Shown: piece by piece, positions 37,060 through 64,000 of the stretch
Layout: every line of letters starts with the position of its first letter
How positions within the stretch are numbered: position 1 is the stretch's first letter
NCBI GenBank assembly: GCA_964057225.1
Contig: OZ059895.1
Span: 15,996,001 to 16,060,000 of the forward strand
Length of the DNA stretch: 64,000 nt
Direction: 5' to 3'
From: Auanema rhodensis
Lineage: Eukaryota > Animalia > Nematoda
The notes under the pieces: model-generated
What the model saw: only the letters and a program-made list of their open reading frames with translations
Databases searched by the model: none
What the model was told of the DNA's origin: nothing
Made by a program: the position numbers and the translations under genes

Positions 37060-37282
37060 AATGTTTTACACCTGTTCAGTATGTTTTCTTCCAGGTAATG
37101 CCCTGAGGGTTAAATTATCCGTAAATGTATTGTTTCATTGGCTAAATAGTTGTGAACGGGATGGTCGCCAGTACTTTCGGGTTCTTCCCGCTTGAGTTGC
37201 AATTAAAACCTGATCGAATGTTTTTCCTCAAGATTCAGAAATTGAATAAAGTGAAACCCATATGAGATACCAAACAAGGTAT

Positions 37283-37648
37283 CGTTCCATTATGCTCCTA
37301 CGTATATTGAACAGACCATTGTAGTCTGCTCAACTACGCGTATAGTATTCCATAAGTGTAGCGGTATGGAAACAGAGCATAAGGATTACATAAGATAAGG
37401 AAATATATAGGTTTATTATACACAATACAATATCATTACAATACAATAACACAAGGATAAAGTAAACTACATTTACAAGACAAAGACTAATATATAAGAT
37501 TAACTAAGTTAGATGCAAACCGTCCATGGGCTTGCAAAGGGGCGAACTCCCGAATAGGGGCATGAGGGAAGGCGGTGCCATTCCTCATTCCTCTAGTCGG
37601 TCTGGCTCTAACCCTGCAGTTACATATATAGAGTCTCCGAATGGAACG
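37283..37648 (-). repeat. 3' LTR of the Gypsy element
   Basis: CGTTCCAT...ATGGAACG; no differences from 48996-49361 seen by eye; sense-strand AATAAA at 37412-37417. Confidence 0.95.
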
Positions 37649-37650
37649 TG

Positions 37651-37659
37651 CCCTTTTTC
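37651..37659 (-). promoter_or_regulatory. Polypurine tract
   Basis: GAAAAAGGG on the element sense strand, 2 nt (CA) before the 3' LTR. Confidence 0.75.
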
Positions 37660-38347
37660 AAAGATTGTCGCGACCTCGCGATATTTTAAACAAAAATTTG
37701 GGCTTATATGTAACTGAGTTTTAGAGTTCAATTGTTTTAGCTTCACAATAACTATAGTATGATAGAGTTTTAGTTAGTATACAAACAAAATTACAATAAT
37801 TTATAAGAAGGGTTCAATATAATATGAAGTGACGATGAATTAGAATATTATTAATTTCATAAATTAATTATCTTAATATTCAAGCATTTCCTAATAGAGA
37901 TTGTAGAATAAGGGGCTAGTAATGAATGGGAATATGTTATTATTTTGACTAATGGTCTCAAGAAGTACTCATTTCTAAATTGAACCGAGATTATGATTTA
38001 ATAATGTGTCTCCATATGTCTCCCAGAGTGAATCCTTGATTACTAATGGAGACTACCACTTAAGATGAAATTGTGGTTGATACGCCTACCAGTGTTTATC
38101 TCATCTTATTTGGAGAGGCACATGGAGCTCGGATGGTTGTCAAAATGTCCTCTAGTCCGCATAGGATTACGGTAACTTGGAACCATTAGTCATAACATCT
38201 CCTCGTTTAGAATTTGCCTTATTTTTCCTTTCTCAATCTCTATTAAATGCTATTTTTATTTTGAATGTTATTTAGCATTAATTTTTTTTTTTCTAATTCA
38301 TCGTTATTTTGTTACAATAATTTAAATAACGTAGCATTATCTTGTTG

Positions 38348-41300
38348 TTATTCTTCTTCATTCCTCGGAAGCCATATTTCGTCTTCATTTTCATCTTCTG
38401 GCTCTGTATCTATGCTATCCTTGTTGTTCCTGTTGATCACTTCTATTATTTCGATGTCGCTATCTTCTTCTGCTTGACTTTCTCGAAACCTTGCGCGAGT
38501 GTTGTAAGAGATGTTTTGTGAAGCAGGAGAGAAGATTTTCAAGTTATCTTTGTGGATATCTTGTAGTTTTCCTGATGAATTTCTGATTTGAACTTTTGAT
38601 CCTTCTACGTTGATGACTTCGTATGGTCCATCATAGCTTTTCCGAAGCTTTTGGCCGATTTGGTGTGATTTTATAGTCGTCATCACCATGTCGCCCGGTT
38701 GAATGTCTCTATGGTGTGCTCTTTGCGTTCTATCTTTCTTCTTTTTCGCATTTTCTTGATTTTTAGCTATGCGGTTCTTTATTATTTCGTCTCTCTTGTC
38801 CATATCTGGTCTTCTTTGGAGTAATTCTTCAGAAATTTCTTGAATTTTGGTGATCGTTTCTGGTAATTCAGCGTCCATTGACATTCTGCATTCTTTACCG
38901 AATAATGCAATGTATGGCGCAATCCCTGTAGTCGCGTGCTGAATATTGTTAATAGCAAAAGTGATTTTTGGTAATACAGTATCCCAGTCACTAAGGTCCT
39001 CTTTTAAGTAGTGGGTTAATCCTTCTTCGAGGGTTCTATGAAGTCTTTCCACTTGTCCATTTGAGTTCTTTTGGTGTGGTAGTGTTGGTTCATGTTTGAT
39101 TCCAAGTTTAGTACACATTTCTTCGAACTTTTTGGATACAAAGTTCGAACCTCTATCGGTGATCAAGCGATGTGGTGGTCCAAAAATGTAAACGAAATGT
39201 CTTAGAAATCGGTCAATTGTGATTTCCGTTGTTATTTGTGGTACAGCAATTGTTGTTGACCATTTTGTAAATGCGTCTTGCATGGTAATGACGTAGGTAC
39301 AGTTTCTTTTTGAAGGGGGAAATGGTCCCATTACGTCCATGTGGACTCGTTCAAATGGCTTGCTTGGTATCTCAAAATGACCTATTGGTTGTACCGTCAT
39401 GGAATGTGGATCTTTTTTTCTTTGAGCACATTTAATGCAGTTCTTGATGAATATAGTAATGTCGTTCTGCATATTTGTCCAATAGAATCTTCTTAGAATT
39501 GCTTCTTTTGTTTTAATAATTCCTTGATGTGCTGCAATTGTAGGATCCTCATGAAAAACTTTGATTATTTCCTCAATTATGGGGTGTTCTTGTGGTATTA
39601 CGATAGCGGGTTGTGGCTTTTTGTCTGTTGGTTTTGTATAGAGCAAGTCATTTATGACACAATATCTGTCATTAGCTGTCATGTTCTTTTGTGCTCTATA
39701 TTCAATCTCCGCTATCGTCCGTTTAATCCAAGGGGTGTTTAGTTGAATTTCCTTTATTGTTGGTGTATTTATGGCGTTAATGTGAATTTCTTCCATTTTC
39801 GTCTTCTTTGTTTCCGGCTTAGCATCGTTAGCTTCTTCACCTATATATCGAGATAGAGCATCGCATACTTTATTTAATTGGCCTGCGCGATATTTTATTT
39901 CAATATCATATTCTTGGATGACCAGCTGGAACTTCGCAAGACGACCAAATAAGTCTCTGCGTGTCATTAAGCTGGTAAGGGGTCGATGGTCCGTAATACA
40001 TATAGTATGAGTTCCAAGAATGTATGTACGGAATTGATTTAATGCATATACAAGGCCTAATGCTTCTATCTCGATTGGTGCGTAGTTACGTTCGGCTTTA
40101 ACTAGTTTTCTGCTTGCAAATGCGATAGGGTGTAGATTTTTCAGAGGTTGTTTTGGATCTTCCGGTTGTAATAATACAGCACCTATGGCGATGTTACTAC
40201 CGTCGCTTTCAACTATAAACAAGCGGTCCGATTTAGGTGGGCTTAAAACGGGTGCCTGTATTAAACTTCTTTTAAGGAGGTCTAAAGCTTCTTTATGTTT
40301 GTTTTCCCATTTGAATTCAGTATCTGCCTTTGTCAGATCGTATAAAGGGCTTGCGATACGTGCAAAATCTTTCATGAATTTGCGAAAGAATCCAACCATT
40401 CCCAAGAATGCTCGTACACCTGTTGCATTCTTTGGTGCCGGATAATCTTGTATGGCGGCGACTTTTTGAGGGTCAGGTTTTATACCTTGACATCCTACAA
40501 TAAGTCCTAGAAATTTCACTTCTGGTTGAGCAAAAGCGCATTTCTTAAGCTTTATCTTCATTCCCAATTCTTCTACTGCTTGCAGTAAATCATCGATATC
40601 TTTGAGATGTTGTTCTCTTGTATCAGATATAACTAATAGATCGTCCAAATAAACAAATAGTTTACAAGAACATTTACTTTGCAAATACCTTACTGCTGTT
40701 TGAAAGGTATGAGGGGCTCCACAAAGGCCCATCGGCATCCGTTTGTACTGGTATGTGCCGGATGTGGTCGTAAATGCTGTTAGTGGTCGATCTGATTTTC
40801 TCAAGGATATTTGAAAAAATCCTGACACTAAATCGAAGTTTGAGAAAAATTGGGCGCCTGCTGCCAAATCAACTATGTCAGAAATGCTTGGAATGACATA
40901 AGTTTGCTTGCGTGTGACATTATTTAAAGCTCGAAAATCTGTCACAAACCTATACGTGTCATCTTTCTTCTTAACTAGTACTACAGGGCTATTAAATAGA
41001 GATGTAGAAGGCTCTATTATGCCTTGCTCAAGCATTTCTTTGACTTGTTTTTCAATTTCTTCCTGTTTTCCTAAGGGAATACGTGTTATTCTCGGCTTTG
41101 GCATATCCATATCTGTTCTCAATGGTATGGTATGCTCTATAGGACCTTTAAATAAGCCTATTTTCCTGTCCTCGTTAAGAAATGCCTCACGATGGCTTTC
41201 AATTATTTTTGTAAGCTCATGTTTTTCTTCTTTCGTGAGATCAGCATTCTCTAGATCAAGATCTTTTATGAAGTCTCTTGGAAAATATGGTAGTTTACTC

Positions 41301-44300
41301 TCCCAATCGGCTTCTGGCGGAACATATGGTAGAATTGGCTTATGCTTAAAGGGTTCACAAGCCGGAATTTTTCCAATTATTGCCTGTCCGATGACTGAAT
41401 TAGCTTCCATAGCTATTGTTTCATCGGTATCGTTACGGAACATAACATATACTCCACTGGTATCACGAAACGCAGTTGGATATAATGATTTTAATGCGCT
41501 TCCACTATCCCCTAAGACAACCACTTCGTTAGATTCTAGTGGTTTATCTGTCTTTATTGGGATAGGTGCCTCTTCATCAGGCTTTAATGTTTTTGTTCTT
41601 AAATTAATGATATTCACAGTTATCTCCGTATGCTTAATAGATTCGTTTCCTATTAATGGGATGGCATTGTTTCCAATCTCCAACCTCTTCTTGGATGGTT
41701 TAAGGCTGACGTCGATGTTTTCGCTGTCAAGCGCTTTCATGAAATCTAGTCCAATTAAAGCGGGAGCAGGACAGTCATGATCGTTTGAGACCAAAAAGGT
41801 GTGTTCGATCTCGTAACCGGCAATTTCAATTACAAGATTTATCTTTCCATAAAATGTGAAAGTGGACTTGTTGGCTGCCATCGCTACTAAATGTCTCTTC
41901 TTGACATTTTCGGCCATGTTCAGATATTTGAGGGTGGAGAGCCTAACATATGACACTGATGAGCCTGAATCCCATAAAGCTAAAATCAGTTTATCTTCAA
42001 CTGATATATATACTAATGGTAACTTTGTTTCCGCTGATACAATAGAAGCAACAAATGGTATTGCGATTGGAATAAATGTTACTAAAGCAGGATAGTATTG
42101 CTTCATGATGTTATCTGGCATCTGTTGGTCTGGGCGGCTTACAAGTTCCAATGTTTCTTCATAGCTTGGGGGCTCATTATCTATTTCGTGGACATGCATT
42201 ACGGTTAGTGGAGTGGCTCTGAAGAACCAAAATTTAGCAACAACGAAAAGAATTATTAATACTGCGGCAATCGTAACCATTGATCCTATGAAGATGAGTG
42301 TTCTCTCAATTGATCCTATTAGAAATTGCTTTACGCTAGTCCAGGCGGAAGTTGTGAACTCAGCTGCTTTAGAGATATAGTCACTGCCCTTTTTCAAAAG
42401 ATTAAAGGCGGACGTAATTTTTGGATCGTTGTGAATAGTATGTAAAACATGGTTCTGTCGTATGGATGCTAAACTTGCTCCATATGCAATAGCTGTTGAC
42501 ATTGAGTAAACTCTCAATGATAAATTGGTGTATAAGTTAGCGCCTGTGAACTTTAAAGGTGTTAATTGGTGGTATTGCGCTTTATCAAAGAGTGATATTG
42601 GTTTTACTTCAACCGATCCATTTATATTTATCCATTCTCCATTTTGATAGTATACATCTGTGGGTACATGTTCGCAATCTATCTCTTTTCCATGTGTTAA
42701 TAAGTCTCTTGATCCTGGAGCAGCAAAATATAATCTCTCATCTTCTGTTATTACTGGTGTTTCCAAATAGCATGTATCATTGATCTTATGATTATGATAA
42801 ACAGCTTTAGGTTGAAGAGGTAGGCATATACGAACATGAACTATATCGCTGCCTACGAAACGGGCTGCAATATCCTCTCTTCCTAAAATAGTCCTCATTG
42901 CTATTGTAGGTTCTATGTGTAAAATAGAACGCCATAGCTCGAGGTATCTATTTTGAATCTCACATATGGATTCATAAGATTCCATGAAATGTTTCTGTAG
43001 CTCTTCTTGTATGAGTGTTGTTGTATATTGTAGATGATCTTGAGCTATTCTGCGAGATACGTTGAGGTTGAATTGTATTTCGTTGTTCACTTTTGACGCT
43101 GTATACGTTGCCTGAGCCTGAATTTCTCTGGTTTCTACGGGTGGAGATGATGTTCTTTGTTTCCTTAAGATTCGTGACGCCGTGTCAGTGACTGTTGCTA
43201 ATGTTGTTGGCGAGAGAGTCGTAGTTATCGCGGCTGTTGTCGTCTCAACTGTGGTTGTCGTCGGAATCCGAGTCGTATGGCTTTTAGTTGTCTCCTGAAC
43301 TAGTGAAGCGGGTTTGTCCGTTGTTGTCGTTAATGACAGTCTTCTAGTCAGATAAGGCGGTGTTTCAATATCCTCTAACAGTGGTAAAAATGTTTTTATA
43401 AGTAGCTGGCGTGTATCTGCGCTTGGGTTTTGAATGCGAGGGTGGGGCCCTATCGATATACCGTAGTTAGAATCTTTATCTCGATATAATTTGTTGGTAT
43501 CTGGCACATTGATTGTTAATTGTCGGAACTTTTCATCATCTACGGCTGCTGCTGTTTTATTTGGCCTTATTACTCGCAATGTCATCAAGTTATGGTATAA
43601 GTAAAGAGTGTTTCTAAGTACTATACGCTCATCAGCATTGTCAGTTGTTAGAGTTGGTCGGATCGGCGGCATGTTCACAAAGGATTTTAAAACCTCTTGC
43701 CTTGATGGTACCGACAGATTGTTTTCAAATATTACCGGTGTATAAGCTAACTCCATCGCTATGCTTTCGGCTCTTTCACGGTAGGATCCGTCTTTTTCTA
43801 GCAGTTTTTCGTCAAATTCGTGTGCTGTTAATCTGTCACCTATCTGTTCTAATAATTGTTGTGAGGTTAAATACCGTATAGCGCCGCGAGTGGTTGCTGC
43901 CAGTTCCTTTTGCGCAAGAAAATAAAGTATTGCTTCCTCAGGGTCGTGTATTTCGTATGTTTGAAGGAAACGTTGTATGGATTTATCAGATACGGGACTT
44001 CTTAAGAAGAAATAAAACTTCTCGGGATGTGCTGAAACCCAATCAATAATTGAATATGAAGGGTTGACAGCTCGTCTGGCCTTTATAAGCGGTATTATCT
44101 GATAAATACCAGGATTACTCATCACCGGTCGTAAGAAAGGATAAGGACAAATATTTAATATTAAAGTTTCAAAATCTTCCTGTTTTTGTATCCACTCCTT
44201 GTTTAATTCAACCGTGCATTCCGCAATTGCTCTTTTATCTCTTTTCGCCGGAAGTTTCTTATATTCTCTCTCTATTAAAACATGGATATTGGTGTCATTT

Positions 44301-46054
44301 GGGTACTGTGGTAAGAGAATGTAATTGCCAGTTGTGGTGTGGAAGATTGGCTGTTTAAAACAAGAAGATATTTGCTTCGGTATCTCTTTTTGATCGATTA
44401 CAAGGGCTGATTGAGTGGTTGGTAACAGAATAATGCCGTCTCCAATTATCACATCATATTCACTCATGTCGATATAGTTGCATCGATATTCATAAGGCTG
44501 TTTCTCCCATATGATGATTGAGGTATCTGATGCACATTCTCCATGATGCGCTAAGCATCCTTCAGTATTTAGTATTAAATTGGAGATTATAGTTTCATCT
44601 GGCATCCGTGTCATAACCCCTCTTTCGATAACCAATCTGGCTTTCTCTTCACATAGTTCATTATTAAAAGATCGGCCTGGCGAGAAGGAAGGCTCGTCAG
44701 TTGCATATGTTATGCTGTCGATCTTCTTTAATTCACTCCAATTCCATCTTCTATCTCTCACTGCCAGTCTGCATTCTGCAGCTGGTATCTTTTCAATTCT
44801 CGCTATCGTTGTATTGGTATCTCTAAGGAACAAAAGGTCTCTGATACACATTTTATGAATTTCTTTGGAGCATCTCCATGCATCCCATTCATGTGCCGTT
44901 TGATTCCTTGTATAAAGATGAACTTTTGTTCGTAAGATATGCTTTATTGGTGGTAATAAGCATTTTCGGAGAGATGGGGGACGGAGAAGGGCTCCTCCAG
45001 TAGCTTTAGTACATAGCTGGTATGCTTCAGCTGTTGTAACCAGTGATAAGATTACTGATAAAGCTACGGCTAAAGTCAAAGGAGATATCAGAGTCAAATT
45101 ATTGACTCTTGAGCCTCTACCTCTGCCTCTATTGTTGTTATTTCCCCTAAAGGTACTGTTATTTCTCTGTCTATTATTGCTCATTTCTTGATTTTGTGAT
45201 GCATTATGGCTTCTTTGATACCCATTTTGATTTTGATTCTGATAATTTCGACCGCGGTCACCAAAATTGCGGTTCCTAGCAAATGGGTTTTGGAAATTCC
45301 AGCCTTTTTGATTTTTTGAAAATTTATGATAATTTTGATTGTTTTGAAAGTTTGGATGATAATTGTTATAATTATTATAATTTTGATAATTTTTATTATT
45401 AAAAGATTGATAACCTCTTGCCATACCTCTCCCACCATTGTTTCTGCGCGGGGGGAAAGTTCTTTCAATTGCGTTAACCAATAGCGCCTGAGGGTCTGCT
45501 ACTTGGTTTGCAATTGATTCCTCCCAGCGAGCACTATCAACAGCCTCAGCAAAAGTTTTGGGTTTTGCTCGAATTACCCCTGGGCGTATCGTATTTTTCA
45601 AGCCTCTCAAAAATGTGGACCTCAGAATGTGATCTTTATGAGTATCACTATTAGAGAAAGCATTTAAGCTGAGGTTTCTTAACGTTTGTGCAAAACCATC
45701 AATTGATAAATCGCCTTGAGTGCTGTTTTGAAGTGTGATAAGGGCAGGGTCTTGATTGTATTCGGGACACAGCTTGGATGTTAACTCTTCTATTAGGGTA
45801 ACCCAAGGTCCAGCTGTTCTGACCTTGTCAGGTAGCTCTAAATAAGCTTCCTCTGCTCTGTCATTTTTCAATAGTAATGGTAAAATAGTTAGTCTTTCGG
45901 GCATCACTAAGCCTAAGGCGTTAGAAAAGGTATTAAACTTTGCCACGAAATCTCTAAAGTTACGACTTCCGTCGTATATGGGGCAATAAGGTGAGCTTAA
46001 TGCGTGCGCAATGGTAGATTTACCAGCTCCCGGAAGACGTGGTGTCTCCGTCAT
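38348..46054 (-). CDS. Gag-Env-Pol polyprotein (2568 aa): capsid-like Gag, internal signal peptide, gB-like class III fusogen with TM, aspartic protease, RT, RNase H, integrase
   Basis: Gag YDGS...FLRGL; signal LTLAVALSVILSLVTTAEA; TM at about 42221-42300; LWDSGSS; RMPMGL and YLDD; ESDGS/EIEA/TDH; integrase H-x-H...CIKC, MDVMGP, ITDRGSNF, NGQVER, YDGPY. Confidence 0.95.
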   Translation of the reverse strand: MTETPRLPGAGKSTIAHALSSPYCPIYDGSRNFRDFVAKFNTFSNALGLVMPERLTILPLLLKNDRAEEAYLELPDKVRTAGPWVTLIEELTSKLCPEYNQDPALITLQNSTQGDLSIDGFAQTLRNLSLNAFSNSDTHKDHILRSTFLRGLKNTIRPGVIRAKPKTFAEAVDSARWEESIANQVADPQALLVNAIERTFPPRRNNGGRGMARGYQSFNNKNYQNYNNYNNYHPNFQNNQNYHKFSKNQKGWNFQNPFARNRNFGDRGRNYQNQNQNGYQRSHNASQNQEMSNNRQRNNSTFRGNNNNRGRGRGSRVNNLTLISPLTLAVALSVILSLVTTAEAYQLCTKATGGALLRPPSLRKCLLPPIKHILRTKVHLYTRNQTAHEWDAWRCSKEIHKMCIRDLLFLRDTNTTIARIEKIPAAECRLAVRDRRWNWSELKKIDSITYATDEPSFSPGRSFNNELCEEKARLVIERGVMTRMPDETIISNLILNTEGCLAHHGECASDTSIIIWEKQPYEYRCNYIDMSEYDVIIGDGIILLPTTQSALVIDQKEIPKQISSCFKQPIFHTTTGNYILLPQYPNDTNIHVLIEREYKKLPAKRDKRAIAECTVELNKEWIQKQEDFETLILNICPYPFLRPVMSNPGIYQIIPLIKARRAVNPSYSIIDWVSAHPEKFYFFLRSPVSDKSIQRFLQTYEIHDPEEAILYFLAQKELAATTRGAIRYLTSQQLLEQIGDRLTAHEFDEKLLEKDGSYRERAESIAMELAYTPVIFENNLSVPSRQEVLKSFVNMPPIRPTLTTDNADERIVLRNTLYLYHNLMTLRVIRPNKTAAAVDDEKFRQLTINVPDTNKLYRDKDSNYGISIGPHPRIQNPSADTRQLLIKTFLPLLEDIETPPYLTRRLSLTTTTDKPASLVQETTKSHTTRIPTTTTVETTTAAITTTLSPTTLATVTDTASRILRKQRTSSPPVETREIQAQATYTASKVNNEIQFNLNVSRRIAQDHLQYTTTLIQEELQKHFMESYESICEIQNRYLELWRSILHIEPTIAMRTILGREDIAARFVGSDIVHVRICLPLQPKAVYHNHKINDTCYLETPVITEDERLYFAAPGSRDLLTHGKEIDCEHVPTDVYYQNGEWININGSVEVKPISLFDKAQYHQLTPLKFTGANLYTNLSLRVYSMSTAIAYGASLASIRQNHVLHTIHNDPKITSAFNLLKKGSDYISKAAEFTTSAWTSVKQFLIGSIERTLIFIGSMVTIAAVLIILFVVAKFWFFRATPLTVMHVHEIDNEPPSYEETLELVSRPDQQMPDNIMKQYYPALVTFIPIAIPFVASIVSAETKLPLVYISVEDKLILALWDSGSSVSYVRLSTLKYLNMAENVKKRHLVAMAANKSTFTFYGKINLVIEIAGYEIEHTFLVSNDHDCPAPALIGLDFMKALDSENIDVSLKPSKKRLEIGNNAIPLIGNESIKHTEITVNIINLRTKTLKPDEEAPIPIKTDKPLESNEVVVLGDSGSALKSLYPTAFRDTSGVYVMFRNDTDETIAMEANSVIGQAIIGKIPACEPFKHKPILPYVPPEADWESKLPYFPRDFIKDLDLENADLTKEEKHELTKIIESHREAFLNEDRKIGLFKGPIEHTIPLRTDMDMPKPRITRIPLGKQEEIEKQVKEMLEQGIIEPSTSLFNSPVVLVKKKDDTYRFVTDFRALNNVTRKQTYVIPSISDIVDLAAGAQFFSNFDLVSGFFQISLRKSDRPLTAFTTTSGTYQYKRMPMGLCGAPHTFQTAVRYLQSKCSCKLFVYLDDLLVISDTREQHLKDIDDLLQAVEELGMKIKLKKCAFAQPEVKFLGLIVGCQGIKPDPQKVAAIQDYPAPKNATGVRAFLGMVGFFRKFMKDFARIASPLYDLTKADTEFKWENKHKEALDLLKRSLIQAPVLSPPKSDRLFIVESDGSNIAIGAVLLQPEDPKQPLKNLHPIAFASRKLVKAERNYAPIEIEALGLVYALNQFRTYILGTHTICITDHRPLTSLMTRRDLFGRLAKFQLVIQEYDIEIKYRAGQLNKVCDALSRYIGEEANDAKPETKKTKMEEIHINAINTPTIKEIQLNTPWIKRTIAEIEYRAQKNMTANDRYCVINDLLYTKPTDKKPQPAIVIPQEHPIIEEIIKVFHEDPTIAAHQGIIKTKEAILRRFYWTNMQNDITIFIKNCIKCAQRKKDPHSMTVQPIGHFEIPSKPFERVHMDVMGPFPPSKRNCTYVITMQDAFTKWSTTIAVPQITTEITIDRFLRHFVYIFGPPHRLITDRGSNFVSKKFEEMCTKLGIKHEPTLPHQKNSNGQVERLHRTLEEGLTHYLKEDLSDWDTVLPKITFAINNIQHATTGIAPYIALFGKECRMSMDAELPETITKIQEISEELLQRRPDMDKRDEIIKNRIAKNQENAKKKKDRTQRAHHRDIQPGDMVMTTIKSHQIGQKLRKSYDGPYEVINVEGSKVQIRNSSGKLQDIHKDNLKIFSPASQNISYNTRARFRESQAEEDSDIEIIEVINRNNKDSIDTEPEDENEDEIWLPRNEEE

Positions 46055-46119
46055 GGTTGGTATATCCTCAGGGTATGTGCGAGATGACGTAATCCCTTTA
46101 CTGCCTGAGCTTCTCGCCG

Positions 46120-47052
46120 TTAAATTCTTACCTCCCTTTTTCGAGTTACCAGATGTTGGATAACTAATGGTAGGGGCGGCTGAGGAGAACCGCTTCCCTG
46201 GGAGTTTGATAATTCGACTCGTTGCCTGAGGCGTCGAATGTATTGATACGCTTGAGCTGGGTATAGCGCTATCTGACTTATTAAGGGTTGGGTTGGAGGA
46301 TACGTGAAGAGAGTTATCACTTGTTCTGTTGTTACCTCCCCTGGAGACAAATTCAAAACTTTTATTAAGCGAGCTGTTAAAGATTTCTTACTTTTGAACT
46401 TATCAGTAGTTAGTGATAAGGGCAAAACTTCGGTAATTTCCTGATTTGGTTCTACAGGATTATTAGAGGTTGAGCGCCTACGCGGTGTATTAGTTTTTCT
46501 TTTATTAATTTTTTTAGAATCAAGCTTTTTCGAATCAAGCTTATCAGTGATAACTGATAAGGGTGATTTGCGAATAGTGAGAGATGAGGTTTTATTAAGT
46601 TGTGAGTTTTCTATCGGAGTGGAAAATGCCTGCGGTGTTAGAGTTAGTTCAAAAGAAGATGCAAGATCGTTATCAGTATTAACTGATAAAGTTGATAAGT
46701 TTAGGTGGGGAGTGGCTGGTGAAGTATTAGAGGTTATTTGTTTTGGTTTTTGAATTTTTTGAATCTTTTTATTACTTTTAAAAGAGTGTACCTTTGGAGT
46801 TGAAGCTGAAGTTTGAATATTGTAGTCCTGAATATAGAAATCAGGGTCCTCCTCGGTGTTGTCCGGAGGTGAATACGTGCCTTCTCGAGGAATGAAGGTT
46901 TTCTCGACTTTGGGTTTTACCTCTTGTTCAGGCTCTTCAATCTGAACACTGAGGAGTCGAGTGCGGCTTCTGGTTCGACTGGCGACTGCGATGTCGTCAC
47001 TGGACTCAGAAGGGTATAGAGCAGGGACGGCCGAAGAGTATCTTCGTGCCAC
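46120..47052 (-). CDS. Upstream S/T/K-rich ORF0, probably an N-terminal extension of Gag in the adjacent frame
   Basis: 310 stop-free codons with no ATG (GTG start in the track); overlaps the open upstream extension of the polyprotein frame. Confidence 0.55.
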   Translation of the reverse strand: MARRYSSAVPALYPSESSDDIAVASRTRSRTRLLSVQIEEPEQEVKPKVEKTFIPREGTYSPPDNTEEDPDFYIQDYNIQTSASTPKVHSFKSNKKIQKIQKPKQITSNTSPATPHLNLSTLSVNTDNDLASSFELTLTPQAFSTPIENSQLNKTSSLTIRKSPLSVITDKLDSKKLDSKKINKRKTNTPRRRSTSNNPVEPNQEITEVLPLSLTTDKFKSKKSLTARLIKVLNLSPGEVTTEQVITLFTYPPTQPLISQIALYPAQAYQYIRRLRQRVELSNSQGSGSPQPPLPLVIQHLVTRKREVRI

Positions 47053-47472
47053 TTTGGAATCACTCTTGGTTTGGAAAAACCGCGAGTGTTTCGTTATATG
47101 GGGGATGTTGACGTTGAATGAGTGACAAGAAATTCAGGTCGGTTATAGGGAAAAGTAAGAAAAGTTTGAAGATTGAGACGTGGCGTCTTTCGCCGAGAAT
47201 CGTTATTAGATGAGAAAGAGTTTTAAAATCTTGGCCTGAGATCTGGCTCCGCCTATCTACCGTATTCTCTTTTCTTTATTCTTTTTCACAGATGTTCATC
47301 AATTATAAATTTTGTTGGTCTTCGCTCTTTCCAGCCTCAATCTTAATACTTTACTCTAATTGAATTCTTGAAAATATGAGAGAGATTTTCAGTCGTTTTA
47401 TGTCCCCTTTTTATGCATAAGATTCTTTATATTTGTAGAGCTGAAGAAGAAAGAAAAAAAAATAATCAAAGA

Positions 47473-48451
47473 ATGGCTTATGAAGGTCTATCGGGAATGA
47501 CTTTTGTCTTGAGAAAGCTGTACGCTGACCTCGTCTTGTATGATCAAGACGAAGTGTTAGCTTATAGGCCTCACCCAGACATGATTAAGATGGTTGGTTA
47601 AAGCAAAGAAACATGTTATATTAATAATAAAAAAAAAATTTTAGTTTATCGAGGATTTAAAAATGCATTATCTGGGGAGGGGATTAGTGAATTTCTCCCT
47701 AATGCAAGAAATAGCGGATGAGGTTGCAGCTATTGGGCGATGGTGCCTCACCGATTTGTGCGCGCATTGGTATGAAAACCCCAATTTAATCGCATCCCCT
47801 TGGAATTGGTATGAGCATAAGCCTCATGATTTTTATGATTATATGTCTAAAATTTTGTTTAAAATTTATTTGTTTTATGAACAGTCTCCTATGGGCTTAT
47901 TGCTAAGGACCTCTGCGGATTCAGAGTATTCGCAGTATTTAGAGCCTAGCAATGAGCCCATCTCACAGCCTATAGAATTTGTGAGACAGTTGCATTTTAA
48001 ATGGGGCTTTTAACAATTGTTTTATATATAATAAATACTTAATTTCACTCATTTGTTCTCTCTCTCTCTTTTTTTTTTCATAACACAAACTTTGGTCGAG
48101 CTTATTAATAAAGAAGGAGTGCGTGCGCCTTGGGAAAATGGCTCATGTGCACGTTGATTATTAAAAGCCGTGGGCGATTCTTTTCCGGAATGATTTTGGC
48201 ATGCTAATGAGATTCCGAGAATATTTAAAAAGATTGCTCATTTTACTAATGGACTGAGACCAAAGCTCGTTTATAAAACGCAATTTTTTTCTTTAAACCA
48301 TTTTACTAATTTATAGAATATTACAATATGAAGACTACGGTAGGTGTGTGGGAATATCTTATGATGTTAGCAACAAAAATGAGCTGAGGAAGGTGACACA
48401 TTCTACGGAGAAGAAAACATCCGTAGCCCATGTGCTTTCGCCAAAATGACC
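47473..48451 (+). pseudogene. Antisense intron-containing accessory gene or remnant inside the element 5' region
   Basis: MAYEGLSG...DMIKM exon joins in frame across a 52-nt GT-AG intron (47593-47644) to FIEDLKMHYLGRG...; later exon-like blocks carry in-frame TGA stops; AATAAA near 48521. Confidence 0.5.
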
Positions 48452-48982
48452 TGACAGGCAACAAAATTTGTGCCAGGATTTTTCGTACTAGTGTGGTCTA
48501 TTCTCACAATCAAAAAAAAAAATAAAAACCGAATAACGGCTCCCGCAAAAATATTTAGTTAGCATGCTCTTTTACGCCTGAATTTAACTTTCAAATCTCT
48601 AGTCCTGACCACAATAAAATATTAAACTTTGTGCGCTTTCAAAATTTCATTCTAACTCCTCGTTGCCAAATAATAATGTAATCAAAATTTCGTTTGGTGA
48701 AATTGTCCCCTATTTCGATCCAAACGTCCTCAAAAAAAAATGCAAGAGAAGCGGTGCAGGATACGGTATTATAAGGGTGGACACTCAGACGGTTTTATGA
48801 GTGGGGACAGCGGGTGAAATTTCAAAATTATATAGTCCTAGCTCTCTAAAAGAGAGATCCCTTGTACCTGCACCTTATACAAGTTGGCGCCCTCATTATG
48901 TTGCTAACCGTGGAGGAAGTTTTAATTTAGATATCAAAATATGGACTTTTTATGCGAGTTTTTGCGACAAAAATGAGTTCGA

Positions 48983-48995
48983 GGTGGAACCTCCA
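48983..48995 (-). promoter_or_regulatory. Primer-binding site complementary to the tRNA-Gln 3' end
   Basis: TGGAGGTTCCACC directly after the 5' LTR; metazoan tRNA-Gln ends ...GGTGGAACCT-CCA. Confidence 0.85.
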
Positions 48996-49361
48996 CGTTC
49001 CATTATGCTCCTACGTATATTGAACAGACCATTGTAGTCTGCTCAACTACGCGTATAGTATTCCATAAGTGTAGCGGTATGGAAACAGAGCATAAGGATT
49101 ACATAAGATAAGGAAATATATAGGTTTATTATACACAATACAATATCATTACAATACAATAACACAAGGATAAAGTAAACTACATTTACAAGACAAAGAC
49201 TAATATATAAGATTAACTAAGTTAGATGCAAACCGTCCATGGGCTTGCAAAGGGGCGAACTCCCGAATAGGGGCATGAGGGAAGGCGGTGCCATTCCTCA
49301 TTCCTCTAGTCGGTCTGGCTCTAACCCTGCAGTTACATATATAGAGTCTCCGAATGGAACG
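48996..49361 (-). repeat. 5' LTR of the Gypsy element
   Basis: 366-bp direct repeat of 37283-37648. Confidence 0.95.
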
Positions 49362-49394
49362 GTATGGCCTGTTAGACTCATTGAGTTGACCATT

Positions 49395-56828: not shown

Positions 56829-57075
56829 AATCTCGAATATTAATTTCATGCTTGGTAATCAGAATATCGTGAGAGTTTCACGTGAAATCCACGTACATCC
56901 ACACGCTCACTTCATTTTTGAATTATAATAGCACTTGACCGGTTGTTCTTCATGTTATAAAATTACTTCTATACTACAATTTTTCTTTTCAGGAAATTGT
57001 GATCAGTCACGTCCTACTCCAATTGGCACCAACGTTGAACCTAATACTGAAAAGGTGAATCTGACGACTCAAGAT

Positions 57076-60000
57076 ATGGAGAACAACGTGAATATGATGC
57101 AACAACCGTGTCTGGATGAAAACTCCGCGTGCGGTGCAAATTCATCTTTTCATACATTGTCCATGGCAGTCACCGTTAAGGGCGTTGGCTGTGATTCAAG
57201 CTTGGACGTCGAAGTATCACCAAGCAGCAATGTAAGTCTTGATGAACTGAGGCTCTGGTCAGCTTCGTCTAAGATGAGCTCACGCGTATCGGGATCACTT
57301 GAATTAGAAGTACCTGTAGTTTCGCAGATGTCAACGATACGCGCACTACCAGGGTATAGCAAGCAATACCCAATGCTGGATATAATGAATTATTATTCAA
57401 TATTGCACTGCGGGCATGACGGTTCGGTGCTTGCCAGATCGGACGGAGAGAACTTCCAGATGTCTACTCGGCCTGATCAAGAGATATCTGCAGGGGATAA
57501 ATTTGCTCGATTTGAGCCAATAATCTCGGCCCTTAGTGCGGCCTTTATAATAATATCACCGAAATTGAGTGAGCCACGGGTCATGTATGAGGATGACCAC
57601 AAACGCATCTCTAGGGCTATGGATGAACTCCTTGAAAAGATGATGCGCGAAAATCATTTGAATCGCGGTGGTGGTTCCTTCGTAATCCGGTTTCAGGACA
57701 CGCGAAATCACATCGTTGTTTTGACATCGCCATTTTCAGTATTGTATAAGGTATACAAGCACTGCATTGGCATAACGCAGTCTTACGTGCGCACTGACTC
57801 GCTCACTAAGCCACACATAAGCATGATACCTTCCTATCGAATTACGGTACAGGAAGCTCATGTATCCCCACGGTTTGACGTCACTGTAAAACCAATTTTC
57901 AGTGAGTTGAGCTGCTTACTAGACGCAATGCGATATAGCAGCTATTTTAGGCATTTGACCGTCGTTCGCGATGTAAGTAATATGCATAGGGAGGGTACGG
58001 GAATTGCTCATGTAGCGCAGAAATTTGAAGCGCTTGAAAGCTCATTGCAACTACTCACCCATGATGTACGTAAACTGCAAGAGGGGGCTTTGATCTATAG
58101 GACTCTGAAGATTGACTTGCGTAAGTACGACGTATCAGTCATACGATGCGTTAACGTTAATAAGATCTTAATGAATCCGGAGCCTATTCCTTTGATAACC
58201 TATTCTTCTCACTTAGCCGTTAATATCGCTAACGAAGAGAGATTATATCGGTGCCCAGGTTTGCCCCTCATTTTAGGGTGCTCCGTTGCTCGTACTGGTG
58301 AGCCCGATTATGGTTCACATTATGGAGATCAGTTCGGCTCAATAACCCCCCAGGTTATTACACCCCTCAGCATAGGAAATGAACTACGTGGAGCGACTAT
58401 GTTTTCTCAACCATCTGTTAAAAGTGCACACTTTCATTACAGATTAACTTTACGCGACAATGTTGCTGATGACGAATACCCGCACGATCTTGAGTACATC
58501 ATCGTAGTTGATTTTGCAGATGATAATCTTGTGCCCCACGATTACATGGTGTCATCGTATGGCAGGCTTGAAGTCAAGAACGAGGGAGAAACAATAGTGC
58601 CTTTCCAAGACGAGACTTGCGATATGGGGGCACGCGGCACGGATTTCGCGATTGCCTACATGACAAAGACAATACCAGTGACTGGACTTTATAGTGCGCA
58701 TTACGCGCGGCATTACCTTCTGTTTCCGCACGCAGCCGACGCTGTGCAGAGTGTCGATGCCATTGAACTACACACTGGGGTGGGAAAGATTATGAATTCC
58801 ATATCCCTAAATCAAACCGTCGACTTTACAGCTCTTGACGGCACGCGCACGCACGCGTTGACTACCAGCTCCAACGGCAGTCATAGGGGAGTTTCGACGT
58901 TCTTCCCACGCTTCATTGAGTATGTGCCATTTGAAGATATATGCACACCAGATGAGGGTAAATCACGTACGACTGGCTTATCCTTTCGTTTCCTCGAAAG
59001 CGTTGTACCTGCGTATTTGGATCTCCATTGTCGCGACAGACGTGACGTCGGCCTTGCATGTAGCGTGTTCGGAGCCTTCTGTGAGGGTACCGAAGCATTC
59101 ACCTGTAAGAGGATACTAGTGCGTACCGATCGTGGTTACGCCATTAATAGAGAGGGAGTCTTTTACAGGCCCAAGGATAAACGAAGTCTTGATATCGATT
59201 CTTCGATTAACGCCATTGACATTAACTCACTGGCATGCGGGCCATCTGGTATCGTTAATAATAGGTCAAAGTTCATGACTTCGTCTGGAGGCATAATGGA
59301 TATTGTCTTTTCGGAGACTATGGCCATGTGTGATGCTACGGGCTTATCTAGCCGTTCATCAATGCTTAGCTTTGGCTATTTAGCTGGAGGCGGAAGTGTC
59401 AATCTTGCGTTACGGCCAAACGGGCTCGGCGATATCAAGACGTATAGTATGCTTACTGCATACTACAACGATAAAATTTACGACATGGAGCGTAACATGC
59501 TCGCAATTGTGCGCACCACCAACGAGCTATCCCTTAAGTTGGATTCATCCATTATACATGTAGGAAATGACATGGTGTACAGATTTGTTGACCATAAACA
59601 AGGGTTCGGCAAGTCAGTCGACCACCTGCTGTCAGTTATTAACAGCGGGGCATCTGCTGCTTCCCTTATTTTCCCACAAATTGGAGTAATTGCCTTTTAT
59701 GGCACCGCTCTACGCACGTTCCTTTCAGCCGTATCGAGCATCATCGACGGTAAAAATGCCACGCTGACCATTGCGTCTTCGTATGCGATGTCAAACTATG
59801 CTCTATCTCTAACCAACATGCATGGCTTAGTATCGCACATGTACTCCACGGTGCCAGACGAAGCTAAAGGGTGTGGTTTAGGTCGACTATCTAACCATTG
59901 GATTGATATTGCCCCAATCGCGAACATTGATGTAATATCAGATGCGTACACGAAGTATTCTGTCAATTTTGTTGAAATGCCAAAATTCGGGCGAGTAAGC

Positions 60001-60231
60001 GTTCGTACTTCAAGTCTAGGTAACAGCGCCTTGTCGAAGATGCTCCCTATTCATACTATCAGCCCTCACGATACCTCAGTCCAGGGGATGTTAACTAACA
60101 CGCTTAGAAGAATGAACCTTGGAATTGAGCACCAATATGTATCATTATGCTCTATATTACATGGAGGTTCCACCTTAGAATCTTTTTACGATTTTCGAAC
60201 TCGATTAAATTATGAATTATCATTCAGTTAA
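57076..60231 (+). CDS. Intronless ~1051-aa endogenous viral element-like protein resembling a dsRNA-virus outer-capsid/spike protein (Phytoreovirus P2-like)
   Basis: Uninterrupted ORF, visibly less AT-rich than the host; two coiled coils, a beta-rich middle, a hydrophobic hairpin VINSGASAASLIFPQIGVIA and an LPIH motif; first true ATG at 57076; family call from memory only. Confidence 0.65.
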   Translation: MENNVNMMQQPCLDENSACGANSSFHTLSMAVTVKGVGCDSSLDVEVSPSSNVSLDELRLWSASSKMSSRVSGSLELEVPVVSQMSTIRALPGYSKQYPMLDIMNYYSILHCGHDGSVLARSDGENFQMSTRPDQEISAGDKFARFEPIISALSAAFIIISPKLSEPRVMYEDDHKRISRAMDELLEKMMRENHLNRGGGSFVIRFQDTRNHIVVLTSPFSVLYKVYKHCIGITQSYVRTDSLTKPHISMIPSYRITVQEAHVSPRFDVTVKPIFSELSCLLDAMRYSSYFRHLTVVRDVSNMHREGTGIAHVAQKFEALESSLQLLTHDVRKLQEGALIYRTLKIDLRKYDVSVIRCVNVNKILMNPEPIPLITYSSHLAVNIANEERLYRCPGLPLILGCSVARTGEPDYGSHYGDQFGSITPQVITPLSIGNELRGATMFSQPSVKSAHFHYRLTLRDNVADDEYPHDLEYIIVVDFADDNLVPHDYMVSSYGRLEVKNEGETIVPFQDETCDMGARGTDFAIAYMTKTIPVTGLYSAHYARHYLLFPHAADAVQSVDAIELHTGVGKIMNSISLNQTVDFTALDGTRTHALTTSSNGSHRGVSTFFPRFIEYVPFEDICTPDEGKSRTTGLSFRFLESVVPAYLDLHCRDRRDVGLACSVFGAFCEGTEAFTCKRILVRTDRGYAINREGVFYRPKDKRSLDIDSSINAIDINSLACGPSGIVNNRSKFMTSSGGIMDIVFSETMAMCDATGLSSRSSMLSFGYLAGGGSVNLALRPNGLGDIKTYSMLTAYYNDKIYDMERNMLAIVRTTNELSLKLDSSIIHVGNDMVYRFVDHKQGFGKSVDHLLSVINSGASAASLIFPQIGVIAFYGTALRTFLSAVSSIIDGKNATLTIASSYAMSNYALSLTNMHGLVSHMYSTVPDEAKGCGLGRLSNHWIDIAPIANIDVISDAYTKYSVNFVEMPKFGRVSVRTSSLGNSALSKMLPIHTISPHDTSVQGMLTNTLRRMNLGIEHQYVSLCSILHGGSTLESFYDFRTRLNYELSFS

Positions 60232-61284
60232 AGAGAATTTATTTTTTTTTTGAGCTATTTCCCTGGGCTACCACCTCTCTTTCCAATTCAGTACGAAGGG
60301 TCTCACTCTTTTTTTTTAATAAACAGGGTTGATATTTTGCGCAGGGTGAGATACTGAATTGGCCAACTTTTCGATATTTTTGTTTCTGCGCAGTTGTATT
60401 TTTGATTTTTCATTGTGGCGAAAAATATATATTTTTTGGAAATGGAAAAGCTGTTTGATATAAGCAAAATTGGACCTTAATAAAGTCAATTTGCGATATT
60501 TTTGATAAAGATTACAAGTTTGTACTAACAGAATGGCCACTGTAAGAAAATAACATCCGCTGTATCATTTGTCATATTTGAATTTAAACCTTCCTCTCAT
60601 AATTTTTTGATTGTTGATTCAAGTTGAAACAAAGACTTTGGAATTTGAAAGATGCCTTGTTTGGTAATTCATTGTTATTCAGTAACAATTGAGATTTTGA
60701 TTTGTCCGCCATACTCACTTCTCTAATTTATGAATCACATTGTCACATAATCATATCCTATCATCATCTTAACAATTAATTATATTCACATCTTTTTTTT
60801 CCTCTCTATAGTTTGTTTTTGTATGAGTTCATTAATTAATTAATCTTCAACCCATATTATTATATATCTTTTTTTTCTTCGATTTTTTTTTCATGTTATT
60901 CACTAATTTATTCACTATCAACTATTCATATTCTTATCTTGTTTACTAACTTATTCCACTATTTTACATTGTAGATTGTTCTGACTTTCCTCCTTTTCCA
61001 AAACGGCAACCTCCAAGAATAATTATACGGATACGCCTTTCCGTACCTCTCAAAGATTAAGAGACAAGAGAAATCGTATTTCTCGATTTCCTTTTCCCGA
61101 TAGTGACGACTCGTTTGACAACGATTTAAGTCCATCGGACGACGAAAAAACGCCAACACACTTGGCTGTAACACCGAAAAAAGAAAAAACTCCCCAGCGC
61201 GAAAAACTACCTCTGAAGCTCCTACTCAACATGAGACCACATGAGCAATCAAACAGAGATTCAACTCTGTAAACGCCTAATTTA

Positions 61285-62266
61285 ATGGCATCTCCAGAGT
61301 TGACCAAAAACTTAACAAAAGTTCTAGGCAGTCCACACTGCCCTAAATACGATGGTAGCCGAAGCTTTCGATCGTACATCGATATATTTAACCGATTCGC
61401 GAATGCTGCGGGACTTTCGGTAATTGAAAGAATTTTTCTTTTTCCTCTGCTGCTTCAGCAGAATGATTCTGCGATCTCTGCATATAACTCGATTTCTTCC
61501 GAAATTCGTGAACGAGGGCCTTGGAAAGACCTTGTTTCACAATTGGCAGAGTTACTTTGCCCTGCCACGGAAAGGAATTTCACGATCGCGAAGTTGCTAC
61601 GCTCGACGCAAGGAGAGAAAACTGTTACTCAGTTGCCTCATACTTGGAAGAAATGGCTTCCAGTATTATGAGCCCAACTGATCGAGAAAGAGAGCTCATA
61701 TTAAGATCAGCTTTCTTAAATGGATTGAACGCTGATTTAGGCATAATTGTTCAAGGAAAAGATCCGAAGACTTATGAGGAAGCAAAAAGGACAGCACGTT
61801 TTGAAGAAGCAATTCGTGCTAACTATAAGAAACAGCATGAAGAAAACTCAACTATGCAAGAGTTGATTTCTGCAGTTCAGAAGATCACCATGAAGGAAAA
61901 TAGGAACTAAAGGAACCATCAGCAGCCACGAGATTTCGAACGGAATAATGGCAACAATCCAAGAAACCCTTGGAGGAATTTCAAAAATAAATTCAGCAGG
62001 AACTCTGGCCCTCGACAAAATTATGGAAACAACTACTCAATGGAGAGTCATCATCATACGAGAGAACCTCGCAACAATTATCCAAGAGGAAATCGAGACA
62101 ACCTATTCTAAATTCTCCAGAAAATGACGAATTATTGGAAAGAAATGAAAATCGGAAAAATACCTGGAATTCTATTCAAGAGAAAATTAAACAAAAATCA
62201 ATTGAACAACAACATCGACTGAATAATAGTAACCGAATAGCATCACGTACATTTGAAATAGGTTAA
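61285..62266 (+). pseudogene. Frameshifted gag homologous to the first element, fused to an integrase C-terminal remnant
   Basis: LGSPHCPKYDGSRSFR vs LSSPYCPIYDGSRNFR; ILRSAFLNGL vs ILRSTFLRGL; frameshift near 61630; ELLERN...RIASRTFEIG aligns ungapped with ELLQRR...RAHHRDIQPG. Confidence 0.85.
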
Positions 62267-62339
62267 ATGGCGTTAAAGGGGATGAAAAATTTTACAAACC
62301 TTATACCTGTGAGGACACAGGACTTCAAGAGCGGTATCA

Positions 62340-62734
62340 TGTAATACTTTATAATTCTGTACTTTATTCTTTCTATAATTTTTATGTATTTCTTTATTCT
62401 TTATTCTGTATTTCATATTTCTTAATTCTAATTTCTTGTCTTAGTGTATTATGTTATCAGTTATATTTTACAACCTCAGCATTTTCCAGGATAATTACAA
62501 TTGTCATTGACAACTTAAAACCTTGCGTGGAAAATGCTGATAACATTCGCTATATAAGCTTGCCATTCAACTGAATCTTCAGTTGGCGGACTTATCTTTA
62601 TTTGTTTATTGTTTAAATGTTTTTTATTTATAATAAATCTTTCTCTCTTCCTCAAATCTTATTGTTTCTTTTACAACACATCAATCTAAGGGTCAATAAC
62701 ATGGAACATTAATATCCAAATCAAGGATATTACA
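62340..62734 (+). repeat. Putative 395-bp 3' LTR of the second element
   Basis: TGTAATA...TATTACA terminal inverted repeats, TATATAA at 62551, AATAAA at 62633; ends exactly where the array resumes; only one copy in the window. Confidence 0.7.
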
Positions 62735-62964
62735 TGTTTTCTTCCAGGTAATGCCCTGAGGGTTAAATTATCCGTAAATGTATTGTTTCATTGGCTAAAT
62801 AGTTGTGAACGGGATGGTCGCCAATACTTTCGGGTTCTTCCCGCTTGAGTTGCAATTAAAACCTGATCGAATGTTTTTCCTCAAGATTCAGAAATTGAAT
62901 AAAGTGAAACCCATATGAGATACCAAACAAGGTATGGCCTGTTAGACTCATTGAGTTGACCAAT

Positions 62965-63128
62965 AAACTTACCTGGCTGGGAGCTGCCCGCGATCATCAA
63001 GGCGGGCTCTCTACGAAGAGGCCTGATCATTGCACTTTTCGATTGGGCTGACCTGTATGGCAATCTCGAGTTGAGATTCGCCAACAGCTAAATTTTTGCG
63101 TTTGGGGATGCGTTCGCGCGTCCCTTAC
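62965..63128 (+). ncRNA. U1: U1 snRNA
   Basis: Copy of 30769 unit. Confidence 0.95.
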
Positions 63129-63367
63129 AATCTCGAATATTAATTTCATGCTTGGTAATCAGAATATCGTGAGAGTTTCACGTGAAATCCACGTACATCC
63201 ACACGCTCACTTCATTTTTGAATTATAATAGCACTTGACCGGTTGTTCTTCATGTTATAAAATTACTTCTATACTACAATTTTTCTTTTCAGGAAATTGT
63301 GATCATTGAAGCCAAGGGAGAGACTTAGAATCGTAACGTTGGTATTCTGATAACGTGTAGTCTCATA

Positions 63368-63439
63368 TCCTCGGTAGTATAGTGGTGAGTATCCGCGTCT
63401 GTCACATGCGAGACCCGGGTTCAATTCCCGGCCGGGGAG
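63368..63439 (+). tRNA. trnD-GTC: tRNA-Asp(GTC)
   Basis: Copy of 31172. Confidence 0.97.
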
Positions 63440-63691
63440 AATGTTTTACACCTGTTCAGTATGTTTTCTTCCAGGTAATGCCCTGAGGGTTAAATTATCC
63501 GTAAATGTATTGTTTCATTGGCTAAATAGTTGTGAACGGGATGGTCGCCAGTACTTTCGGGTTCTTCCCGCTTGAGTTGCAATTAAAACCTGATCGAATG
63601 TTTTTCCTCAAGATTCAGAAATTGAATAAAGTGAAACCCATATGAGATACCAAACAAGGTATGGCCTGTTAGACTCATTGAGTTGACCAAT

Positions 63692-63855
63692 AAACTTACC
63701 TGGCTGGGAGCTGCCCGCGATCATCAAGGCGGGCTCTCTACGAAGAGGCCTGATCATTGCACTTTTCGATTGGGCTGACCTGTATGGCAATCTCGAGTTG
63801 AGATTCGCCAACAGCTAAATTTTTGCGTTTGGGGATGCGTTCGCGCGTCCCTTAC
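63692..63855 (+). ncRNA. U1: U1 snRNA
   Basis: Copy of 30769 unit. Confidence 0.95.
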
Positions 63856-64000
63856 AATCTGAAGTATAAATTTCATGCTTGGTAATCAGAATATCGTGAG
63901 AGTTTCACGTGAAATCCACGTACATCCACACGCTCACTTCATTTTTGAATTATAATAGCACTTGACCGGTTGTTCTTCATGTTATAAAATTACTTCTATA

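Follow-up and report, generated by a model that had tools for sequence, protein, structure and literature searches.

In nematodes, retroelements are already described in which an envelope protein (Env) related to herpesvirus glycoprotein B (gB) is encoded ahead of Pol. Chary and Hayashi (eLife, PMC13524379) describe gB-type ENV in GAG-ENV-POL order in nematode, bryozoan and flatworm elements, 36 of them nematode, and credit Sacco et al. 2022 (J Gen Virol 103:1739, doi 10.1099/jgv.0.001739) with the ENV/POL flip in nematodes. Here, a 64,000-nucleotide (nt) stretch of the Auanema rhodensis genome (contig OZ059895.1, positions 15,996,001 to 16,060,000; termed the window, in which coordinates are counted from the first letter) was found to carry a Ty3/gypsy long terminal repeat (LTR) element of 12,079 bp on the minus strand at 37283-49361. 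Within a single open reading frame (ORF), the element encodes Gag and, behind it, a signal peptide, a predicted class III gB-like fusogen with its membrane anchor and finally Pol; it is probably a member of the published nematode group. The initial annotation of this DNA had treated the layout as new, a claim that falls with the published nematode elements of the same gB-type order (PMC13524379); the layout is known, and the element adds to that kind.

The reading frame and its Env domain

The ORF occupies 38348-46054 on the minus strand and runs for 2568 codons without a stop, the frame being open from stop to stop from position 46387, and the window contains no N. Pfam matches along the ORF follow the order Ty3_capsid, Glycoprotein_B with Monjiviricetes_fusion, aspartyl protease, RVT_1, RNase H and integrase. 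The Ty3/Gypsy assignment made in the initial annotation is borne out by the order of the Pol domains. Its description of a chain leading from Gag through a signal peptide, an ectodomain and a transmembrane (TM) helix to protease, reverse transcriptase (RT), RNase H (RH) and integrase, with no stop or frameshift, is likewise borne out by the ORF and the Pfam order, the signal-peptide and TM coordinates agreeing to within a few bases. The parts of the frame, with residues given as amino acids (aa) of the ORF, are as follows.

45470-46012, minus: capsid domain, aa ~15-195; weak Pfam Ty3_capsid match (E 0.03, below cut-off) in a region common to relatives
45101-45469, minus: Asn/Gln/Arg/Gly-rich, putatively nucleocapsid-like region without a zinc knuckle, with VNAI and VNNL motifs at its borders
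45023-45100, minus: internal signal peptide, predicted cut after ...AEA, from hydropathy; a similar hydrophobic region precedes the Env start in the relatives displayed
42305-45022, minus: class III gB-like ectodomain, aa 345-1250, from Pfam, a PDB profile search, a structure model and fold searches
43355-44230, minus: all-helical insert of ~290 aa after RDKR
43175-43342, minus: Thr-rich stretch, after the helical insert and before RILRKQR
42227-42304, minus: TM anchor, aa ~1251-1276, hydropathy peak 2.95
42023-42226, minus: linker on the cytosolic side, containing PPSY (aa 1295) and YPAL (aa 1321), both late-domain-like, and at aa 1320-1343 a hydrophobic stretch broken by prolines
41720-42022, minus: aspartic protease, DSG at aa 1362, from Pfam and motif
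39908-41137, minus: RT (YLDD at aa 1802) and RNase H, Pfam E 5.7e-32 and 2.6e-28
38555-39580, minus: integrase (H2C2, core, GPY motif), from Pfam and motifs

Close relatives carry PF03732 or PF19259. The hydrophobic stretch at aa 317-345 terminates in TTAEA/YQLC (TTAEA from nt 45037) and reaches 2.24 over a Kyte-Doolittle 19-mer, the ectodomain contains 16 Cys, and a TM segment was found at the same place in 44 of the 47 relatives examined. The motifs ICEIQNRY (aa 1030) and CYLETPV (aa 1095) lie inside the matches to Monjiviricetes_fusion (E 5.9e-15, above cut-off) and Glycoprotein_B (E 6.5e-9, below cut-off). Of the gB pattern first recognised in this segment, CYLETPV is present as described, while the supposed WCxxQN reads ICEIQN; similarly, the tail after the TM helix exists, but at ~70-80 aa it is not the short one first described.

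When a profile of 74 aligned sequences was compared with the PDB, herpesvirus gB chains ranked first, the best being human cytomegalovirus gB (E 1.1e-17). An AlphaFold2 model of the ectodomain (predicted local distance difference test, pLDDT, 75; predicted template modelling score, pTM, 0.55) gave herpes simplex virus 1 gB as its best Foldseek match in the PDB (E 3.8e-12) and prefusion Epstein-Barr virus gB as its best VIA-align match (Z 13.3, root-mean-square deviation 6.4, 399 residues aligned), and all of the best 50 VIA-align rows listed were herpesvirus gB. A search of BFVD with the same model was led by the G protein of Beihai rhabdo-like virus 3 (E 3.4e-16), with Nyavirus G at E 1.4e-12. 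Whole-chain template modelling scores were low (0.15-0.30) because of an insert and domain motion. Pfam, profile and fold searches therefore agree on the proposed gB-like class III fusogen between Gag and protease, and the ectodomain, when modelled and compared by Foldseek, does match that class.

Two basic sites, RDKR (aa 605) and RILRKQR (aa 961-967), enclose ~390 extra residues made up of the helical domain (model pLDDT 74, pTM 0.71) and the Thr-rich stretch, a feature that the initial annotation does not mention. The helical insert is common to 7 of 151 fetched proteins plus protein P0160, and in the Auanema homologue basic sites likewise stand at both of its ends. No fold match to it was obtained in Pfam (none), BFVD (best E 0.33) or the whole PDB (best Z 3.9), a result that does not prove a new fold. 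Furin-type cleavage at both basic sites would prime Env and could free the helical insert. For the C-terminal part of Env, no related locus was found in metagenome contigs.

The nearest protein, from Auanema sp. JU1783, is 47% identical over the aligned part of the ectodomain and shows the same Gag-signal-Env-TM-protease-RT chain. A deep search returned 288 proteins at E <=0.001, of which the best 150 were listed; among the fetched proteins of at least 900 aa (n = 72), Env preceded Pol in one chain in 42 cases, Pol preceded Env in 4 and, in the domain map drawn up here, Env stood on its own in 26. Eight of ten relatives looked up were nematode by name. Among the best 120 RT-RH matches listed, all 11 relatives with at least 52% identity carried a gB or Monjiviricetes domain, and these came from the rhabditid nematodes Auanema, Caenorhabditis and Diploscapter. 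A quick RT tree (139 rows) placed the element with nematode Env-before-Pol elements in a 13-row clade of that layout throughout, drawn from the same three genera (Shimodaira-Hasegawa-like approximate likelihood ratio test, 100). This clade was nested in a 28-row set (97), in which the 4 rows without an Env match have short N ends and retain the TM segment ahead of the protease. The RT phylogeny and the layout search in other nematodes, both suggested at the outset, thus gave the same layout in rhabditid relatives and one RT clade, and the proposed nematode host, likely a rhabditid, is in keeping with those relatives. Of the features of the group in PMC13524379, an uninterrupted GAG-ENV-POL frame between LTRs and a gB-type ectodomain between signal peptide and TM are present in the element. 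That group is further sorted by Cys-bridge class (C1a, C1d, C2a, C2c), and most of its members, though not all, occur in multiple near-identical copies.

Taken by itself, the unusual order might suggest that Env came to lie inside Gag-Pol through an error of assembly, or by an accident confined to this copy. That explanation is refuted by the homologues and retains practically no probability: 42 database proteins have the same order, the 47% identical Auanema protein has the same junctions, a group of such elements is published, and the LTRs and target-site duplication of this copy are clean.

Predicted topology and processing

From this anatomy, together with the fold match, the RT clade and the transcript-like contigs presented below, we infer how the polyprotein would be handled. 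Gag would be synthesised in the cytosol, after which the internal signal peptide would open translocation and be cut by signal peptidase; the chain would cross the endoplasmic reticulum (ER) membrane once, with the ectodomain folding inside the ER lumen, and the TM segment would halt transfer so that protease, RT, RNase H and integrase remain cytosolic. Gag, through the signal stub, and Pol, through the TM segment, would both be membrane-bound at first, which would gather capsid, Env and enzymes at one membrane. Linker motifs resembling PPxY, PSAP and YPxL would recruit the endosomal sorting complex required for transport (ESCRT), so that budding would be driven from the Env tail, and the element protease would free Gag and Pol by cutting at xVN/xV-type sites that lie ahead of the signal peptide and behind the TM segment. 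The ER-threading topology first envisaged is supported by the signal-like stretch and the one TM segment kept in relatives.

Motifs of the PPSY and YPAL type resemble late domains. In 44 of the 47 relatives' rows (3 were left out for a long linker or the lack of a TM segment), P[TS]AP or PPxY was present in 9 of the 44 TM-protease linkers compared with 1.2 in shuffles (0 of 5000 reached this count), and its density was 2.1 per 1000 in linkers versus 0.16 elsewhere. Among 18 relatives, a second motif, which resembles retroelement protease sites, was present ahead of the signal in 11 and behind the TM segment in 12, at 9.4 and 12.0 per 1000 residues, respectively, versus 1.1 in ectodomains (~8-10-fold). 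The membrane-tethered Pol of the initial annotation therefore stands as regards the tether, given the TM segment ahead of Pol, but not as a lasting one: because such motifs follow the TM segment in relatives, Pol is likely tethered only briefly and released on maturation. Gag, Env and Pol would be equimolar, as had also been proposed, only if the full ORF were the sole message.

The second hydrophobic stretch (aa 1320-1343) would allow another outcome, in which it inserts in some chains, so that their Pol ends up in the ER lumen and is discarded; such a switch of topology would lower the Pol dose. The hydropathy of the stretch (2.19) and of similar stretches in several rows of the closest clade (1.6-2.1) is compatible with insertion. 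However, prolines break the stretch, most relatives lack it (a second 19-mer with hydropathy of at least 1.8 was found in only 5 of the 44 linkers), and the core Y[IV]P motif is kept in relatives in which the stretch is polar. We consider such a switch very unlikely.

Expression was examined in a single study whose four runs are presumed to be RNA, although none is recorded as such; 13-40% of the words were present in them. Contigs of these runs touch 29, 19, 18 and 14 of 30 bins, and those at 95-100% identity represent other copies or strains; two runs cover mainly the 3' part, and the contigs cannot support a claim of subgenomic RNA. The ORF could be real and yet be expressed by cis- or trans-splicing into subgenomic mRNAs, in which case Gag, Env and Pol would not be equimolar. 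The leader is 2.9 kb long with 23 upstream ATGs, acceptor-like sites lie at 47441, 46341 and 42219, and an accessory mRNA of Cer1, another Ty3/gypsy element of nematodes, is produced by splicing (PMC10309623). Against this, no sense-strand joint was listed in the four low-depth runs, short contigs read without a splice through the nucleocapsid-signal-Env and TM-linker junctions, and the frame is continuous in many relatives. Splicing of this kind is judged unlikely.

It may also be that Env is kept but serves only inward budding (ER or endosome) or transfer to neighbouring cells, making the element a germ-line retrotransposon and not a virus that passes from animal to animal. The intact signal, the 16 Cys, the basic sites and the late-like motifs would suit a working surface fusogen, and rhabdo- and nyamivirus G proteins, which function alone, need no partner. 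On the other side, PMC13524379 finds the tree of the elements congruent with that of their hosts and takes this as vertical descent, and its discussion points out that herpesvirus gB requires partner glycoproteins, none of which is encoded in the element. A purely germ-line life is doubtful but deserves serious consideration; it is compatible with the polyprotein model and differs in route only.

A number of points weigh against the polyprotein model and the classification that goes with it. The RT tree rows exclude the elements of PMC13524379, and the database homologues are gene models, which predictors may have joined. Strict late motifs are absent from 35 of the 44 linkers, and the linker rows are akin, so that the shuffle test exaggerates the support. 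The protease-site pattern was picked after inspection of the sequences, and the element's own post-TM linker lacks it, the match being on the Gag side only. The second hydrophobic stretch of the element is the strongest among the 44 linkers. The upstream ATGs, together with a long leader frame that lacks Met, make the true start and the form of the mRNA unsure, and processing, particle formation, fusion and the infectivity first proposed are all predictions.

Leader, antisense gene and insertion site

The features outside the main frame are listed below.

46120-47133, minus: low-complexity frame of 337 codons without Met, with a 268-nt overlap with the open main frame; 0 of 1000 shuffles as long
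47473-47592, plus: antisense exon 1, 40 codons from a likely ATG at 47473, in frame with exon 2 across the intron; probable start
47593-47644, plus: intron of 52 nt, GT..AG, phase 0, opposite to the element strand; spliced out in contigs of three of the four runs
47645-48013, plus: antisense exon 2, 122 codons and stop, the longest stop-free frame of the leader; 27 of 1000 shuffles as long
48996-49361, minus: 5' LTR, 366 bp, with CG...CG ends and short inverted termini, not TG...CA
37283-37648, minus: 3' LTR, matching the 5' LTR
48978-48995, minus: primer-binding site (PBS), complementary to the 3' end of tRNA-Gln
37649-37660, minus: polypurine tract, from sequence, directly before the 3' LTR
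37279-37282, plus, with a second copy at 49362-49365: target-site duplication GTAT, 4 bp; a single GTAT stands in three neighbouring array units without an insert
30711-57005, plus: host tandem array of a 727-bp unit with one tRNA-Asp(GTC) gene per unit

No homologue of the 337-codon frame was found among the fetched proteins. It likely either extends Gag at the N terminus as a disordered region, with the frame broken in this copy, or serves as an exon that is spliced in. The break may lie within the overlap at 46120-46387, so that ATG 46054 may differ from the original start; that this ATG could serve is shown by relatives whose chains begin 11-19 residues ahead of the capsid, and 75-157 residues precede the capsid in others. 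A programmed frameshift joining the upstream frame to Gag was rejected, as no X XXY YYZ heptamer occurs in the overlap. Elsewhere in the window, a low-complexity stretch likewise precedes the capsid in a decayed gag of the same element group (60985-62124, plus; E 1e-28 at 37% identity over 129 aa), which is interrupted by stops and frame breaks.

The two antisense exons, also missed in the initial annotation, most probably constitute a real gene, likely encoding an accessory protein of ~162 aa. In exon 2, 8 of 9 substitutions listed are silent in the antisense frame, and across both exons 9 of 10 are silent where 3.0 would be expected (P ~9e-5); these substitutions derive from 40 of 54 differences listed and, coming from one or few sister copies, amount to one comparison. 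Of the 12 differences listed for pol, 7 are silent. The mirror sense frame was dismissed as the source of this bias, with 6 of 9 silent versus 8 of 9, only 51 codons and no Met, and GT..AG intron ends on the plus strand only. The gene would accordingly appear to be under purifying selection. A word search and searches of metagenome contigs, NCBIfam and the rest of the window revealed no homologue of exon 2; an ESM Atlas label of Peptidase_M13_N (0.94) was dropped because its recognition value (1635) and 115 shared features fell below the tool's marks. By analogy with CERV of Cer1 (PMC10309623), the product might act in RNA export, silencing evasion or regulation. A literature search on antisense accessory genes, made for the LTR elements of Caenorhabditis, brought up one unrelated paper.

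Taken together, these features could describe a complex nematode retrovirus: it would make one polyprotein, bud through ESCRT by a late domain that sits in the Env tail and not in Gag, release by furin, from within its fusogen, a helical protein whose fold is unmatched, and carry a spliced antisense gene in its leader. We advance this reading tentatively and consider it improbable as a whole. Were it true, an antisense regulatory gene in the leader would recall the antisense genes of complex vertebrate retroviruses.

The two LTRs are 100% identical by blastn and string comparison, from which a recent insertion is deduced, and the element is intact and likely recently inserted. Its LTR termini (37283-37284 and 49360-49361) carry CG...CG in place of the usual TG...CA. 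The order protease-RT-RNase H-integrase, together with LTRs, PBS, polypurine tract and target-site duplication, is that of Ty3/gypsy elements (Metaviridae). In PMC13524379, a tRNA-Gln PBS is given for 8 of 36 nematode rows, and the reverse complement of 12 nt of the present PBS is identical to the 12-mer given for two Caenorhabditis elements in supplement 1. At 48977-49010, contigs of all four runs match the LTR end and PBS only and then diverge into other sequence, which suggests that other families share this primer site and LTR terminus with the element.

The insertion point is mid-spacer in the tRNA-Asp array, 223 nt past one tRNA gene and ~437 nt ahead of the next, and a Ty3-like targeting of the Pol III start site was thereby ruled out. 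As a single event among near-identical array units, the insertion gives no evidence of site preference. The array (30711-57005 and 62734-64000) has units ~99% identical, 20 tRNA-Asp(GTC) genes called and two mobile-element inserts within 20 kb. The second insert (57006-62733, plus; 5.7 kb) stands in place of ~155 nt of a unit and has the decayed gag at its end; searches of Pfam, NCBIfam, PDB sequences and viral contigs left its 1074-codon ORF (57007-60228, ~46% GC) unmatched, with Atlas scores <0.8, and the ORF is possibly a captured viral or host gene. The window further contains a host-like KCTD8/12/16 H1 domain exon (15156-15863, plus; Pfam) and a host-like, intronless-looking alpha/beta hydrolase frame of 295 codons (16936-17823, minus; Pfam).

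Comparison with known systems

At the level of Env, the fold and the Cys-anchored domains are like those of herpesvirus gB and of mononegavirus and chuvirus G. The element protein differs from these in its low identity to them (13-15%), in its position inside a retroelement polyprotein and in the ~390-residue insert between the two basic sites.

Atlas virus and Tas (Belpaoviridae; PMC9094657) are likewise nematode LTR elements that make a single long polyprotein, a captured fusogen included, and the Tas env shows weak gB similarity. They are, however, BEL/Pao elements of Gag-Pol-Env order with the RT motif YVDN, and Atlas Env is class II. Membership of the Belpaoviridae was accordingly rejected for this Ty3/gypsy element, which has Env before Pol and YLDD. 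An Errantivirus of the Drosophila type, with an F-type env after pol in a separate ORF, was also rejected, as the gB-type Env is in frame before Pol.

The antisense gene likewise has partial parallels. The CERV gene of Cer1 (PMC10309623) is an accessory gene beyond gag and pol, as here, but it is in sense orientation and partly 3' of pol, whereas the gene described here is antisense, lies in the 5' leader and has no detectable homologue. Antisense extra ORFs are reported as accessory genes beyond gag and pol in plant LTR elements too (PMC7264820).

The NERV clade that Sacco and colleagues are said to have defined in 2022 reportedly has a continuous gag-env-pro-pol ORF, a nyamivirus-like glycoprotein, chromadorean hosts and extra small or helicase ORFs. 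That definition fits the element in its continuous gag-env-pro-pol ORF, in its nyamivirus-like G by BFVD and, as judged from its relatives, in its chromadorean nematode host.

The closest agreement is with the elements of PMC13524379, among them Caenorhabditis latens_4, tropicalis_1 and remanei_1, which have the same order, a gB-type Env bounded by a signal peptide and a TM segment, LTRs measuring a few hundred bp, lengths of ~11-12 kb and, in some, a tRNA-Gln PBS. No Auanema is among the 36 nematode rows of that report, whose main text contains none of the terms polyprotein, splicing, antisense, late domain or frameshift, and no title in a listing of the Auanema literature concerned this element. 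The late-domain-like motifs, the cleavable helical insert and the spliced antisense gene are details absent from that main text and from the literature searches. To the published kind, the element adds a young copy whose LTRs are identical and for which transcript-like contigs exist, and with it a concrete model for the lone action of a gB-type fusogen and for Gag-Env-Pol processing.

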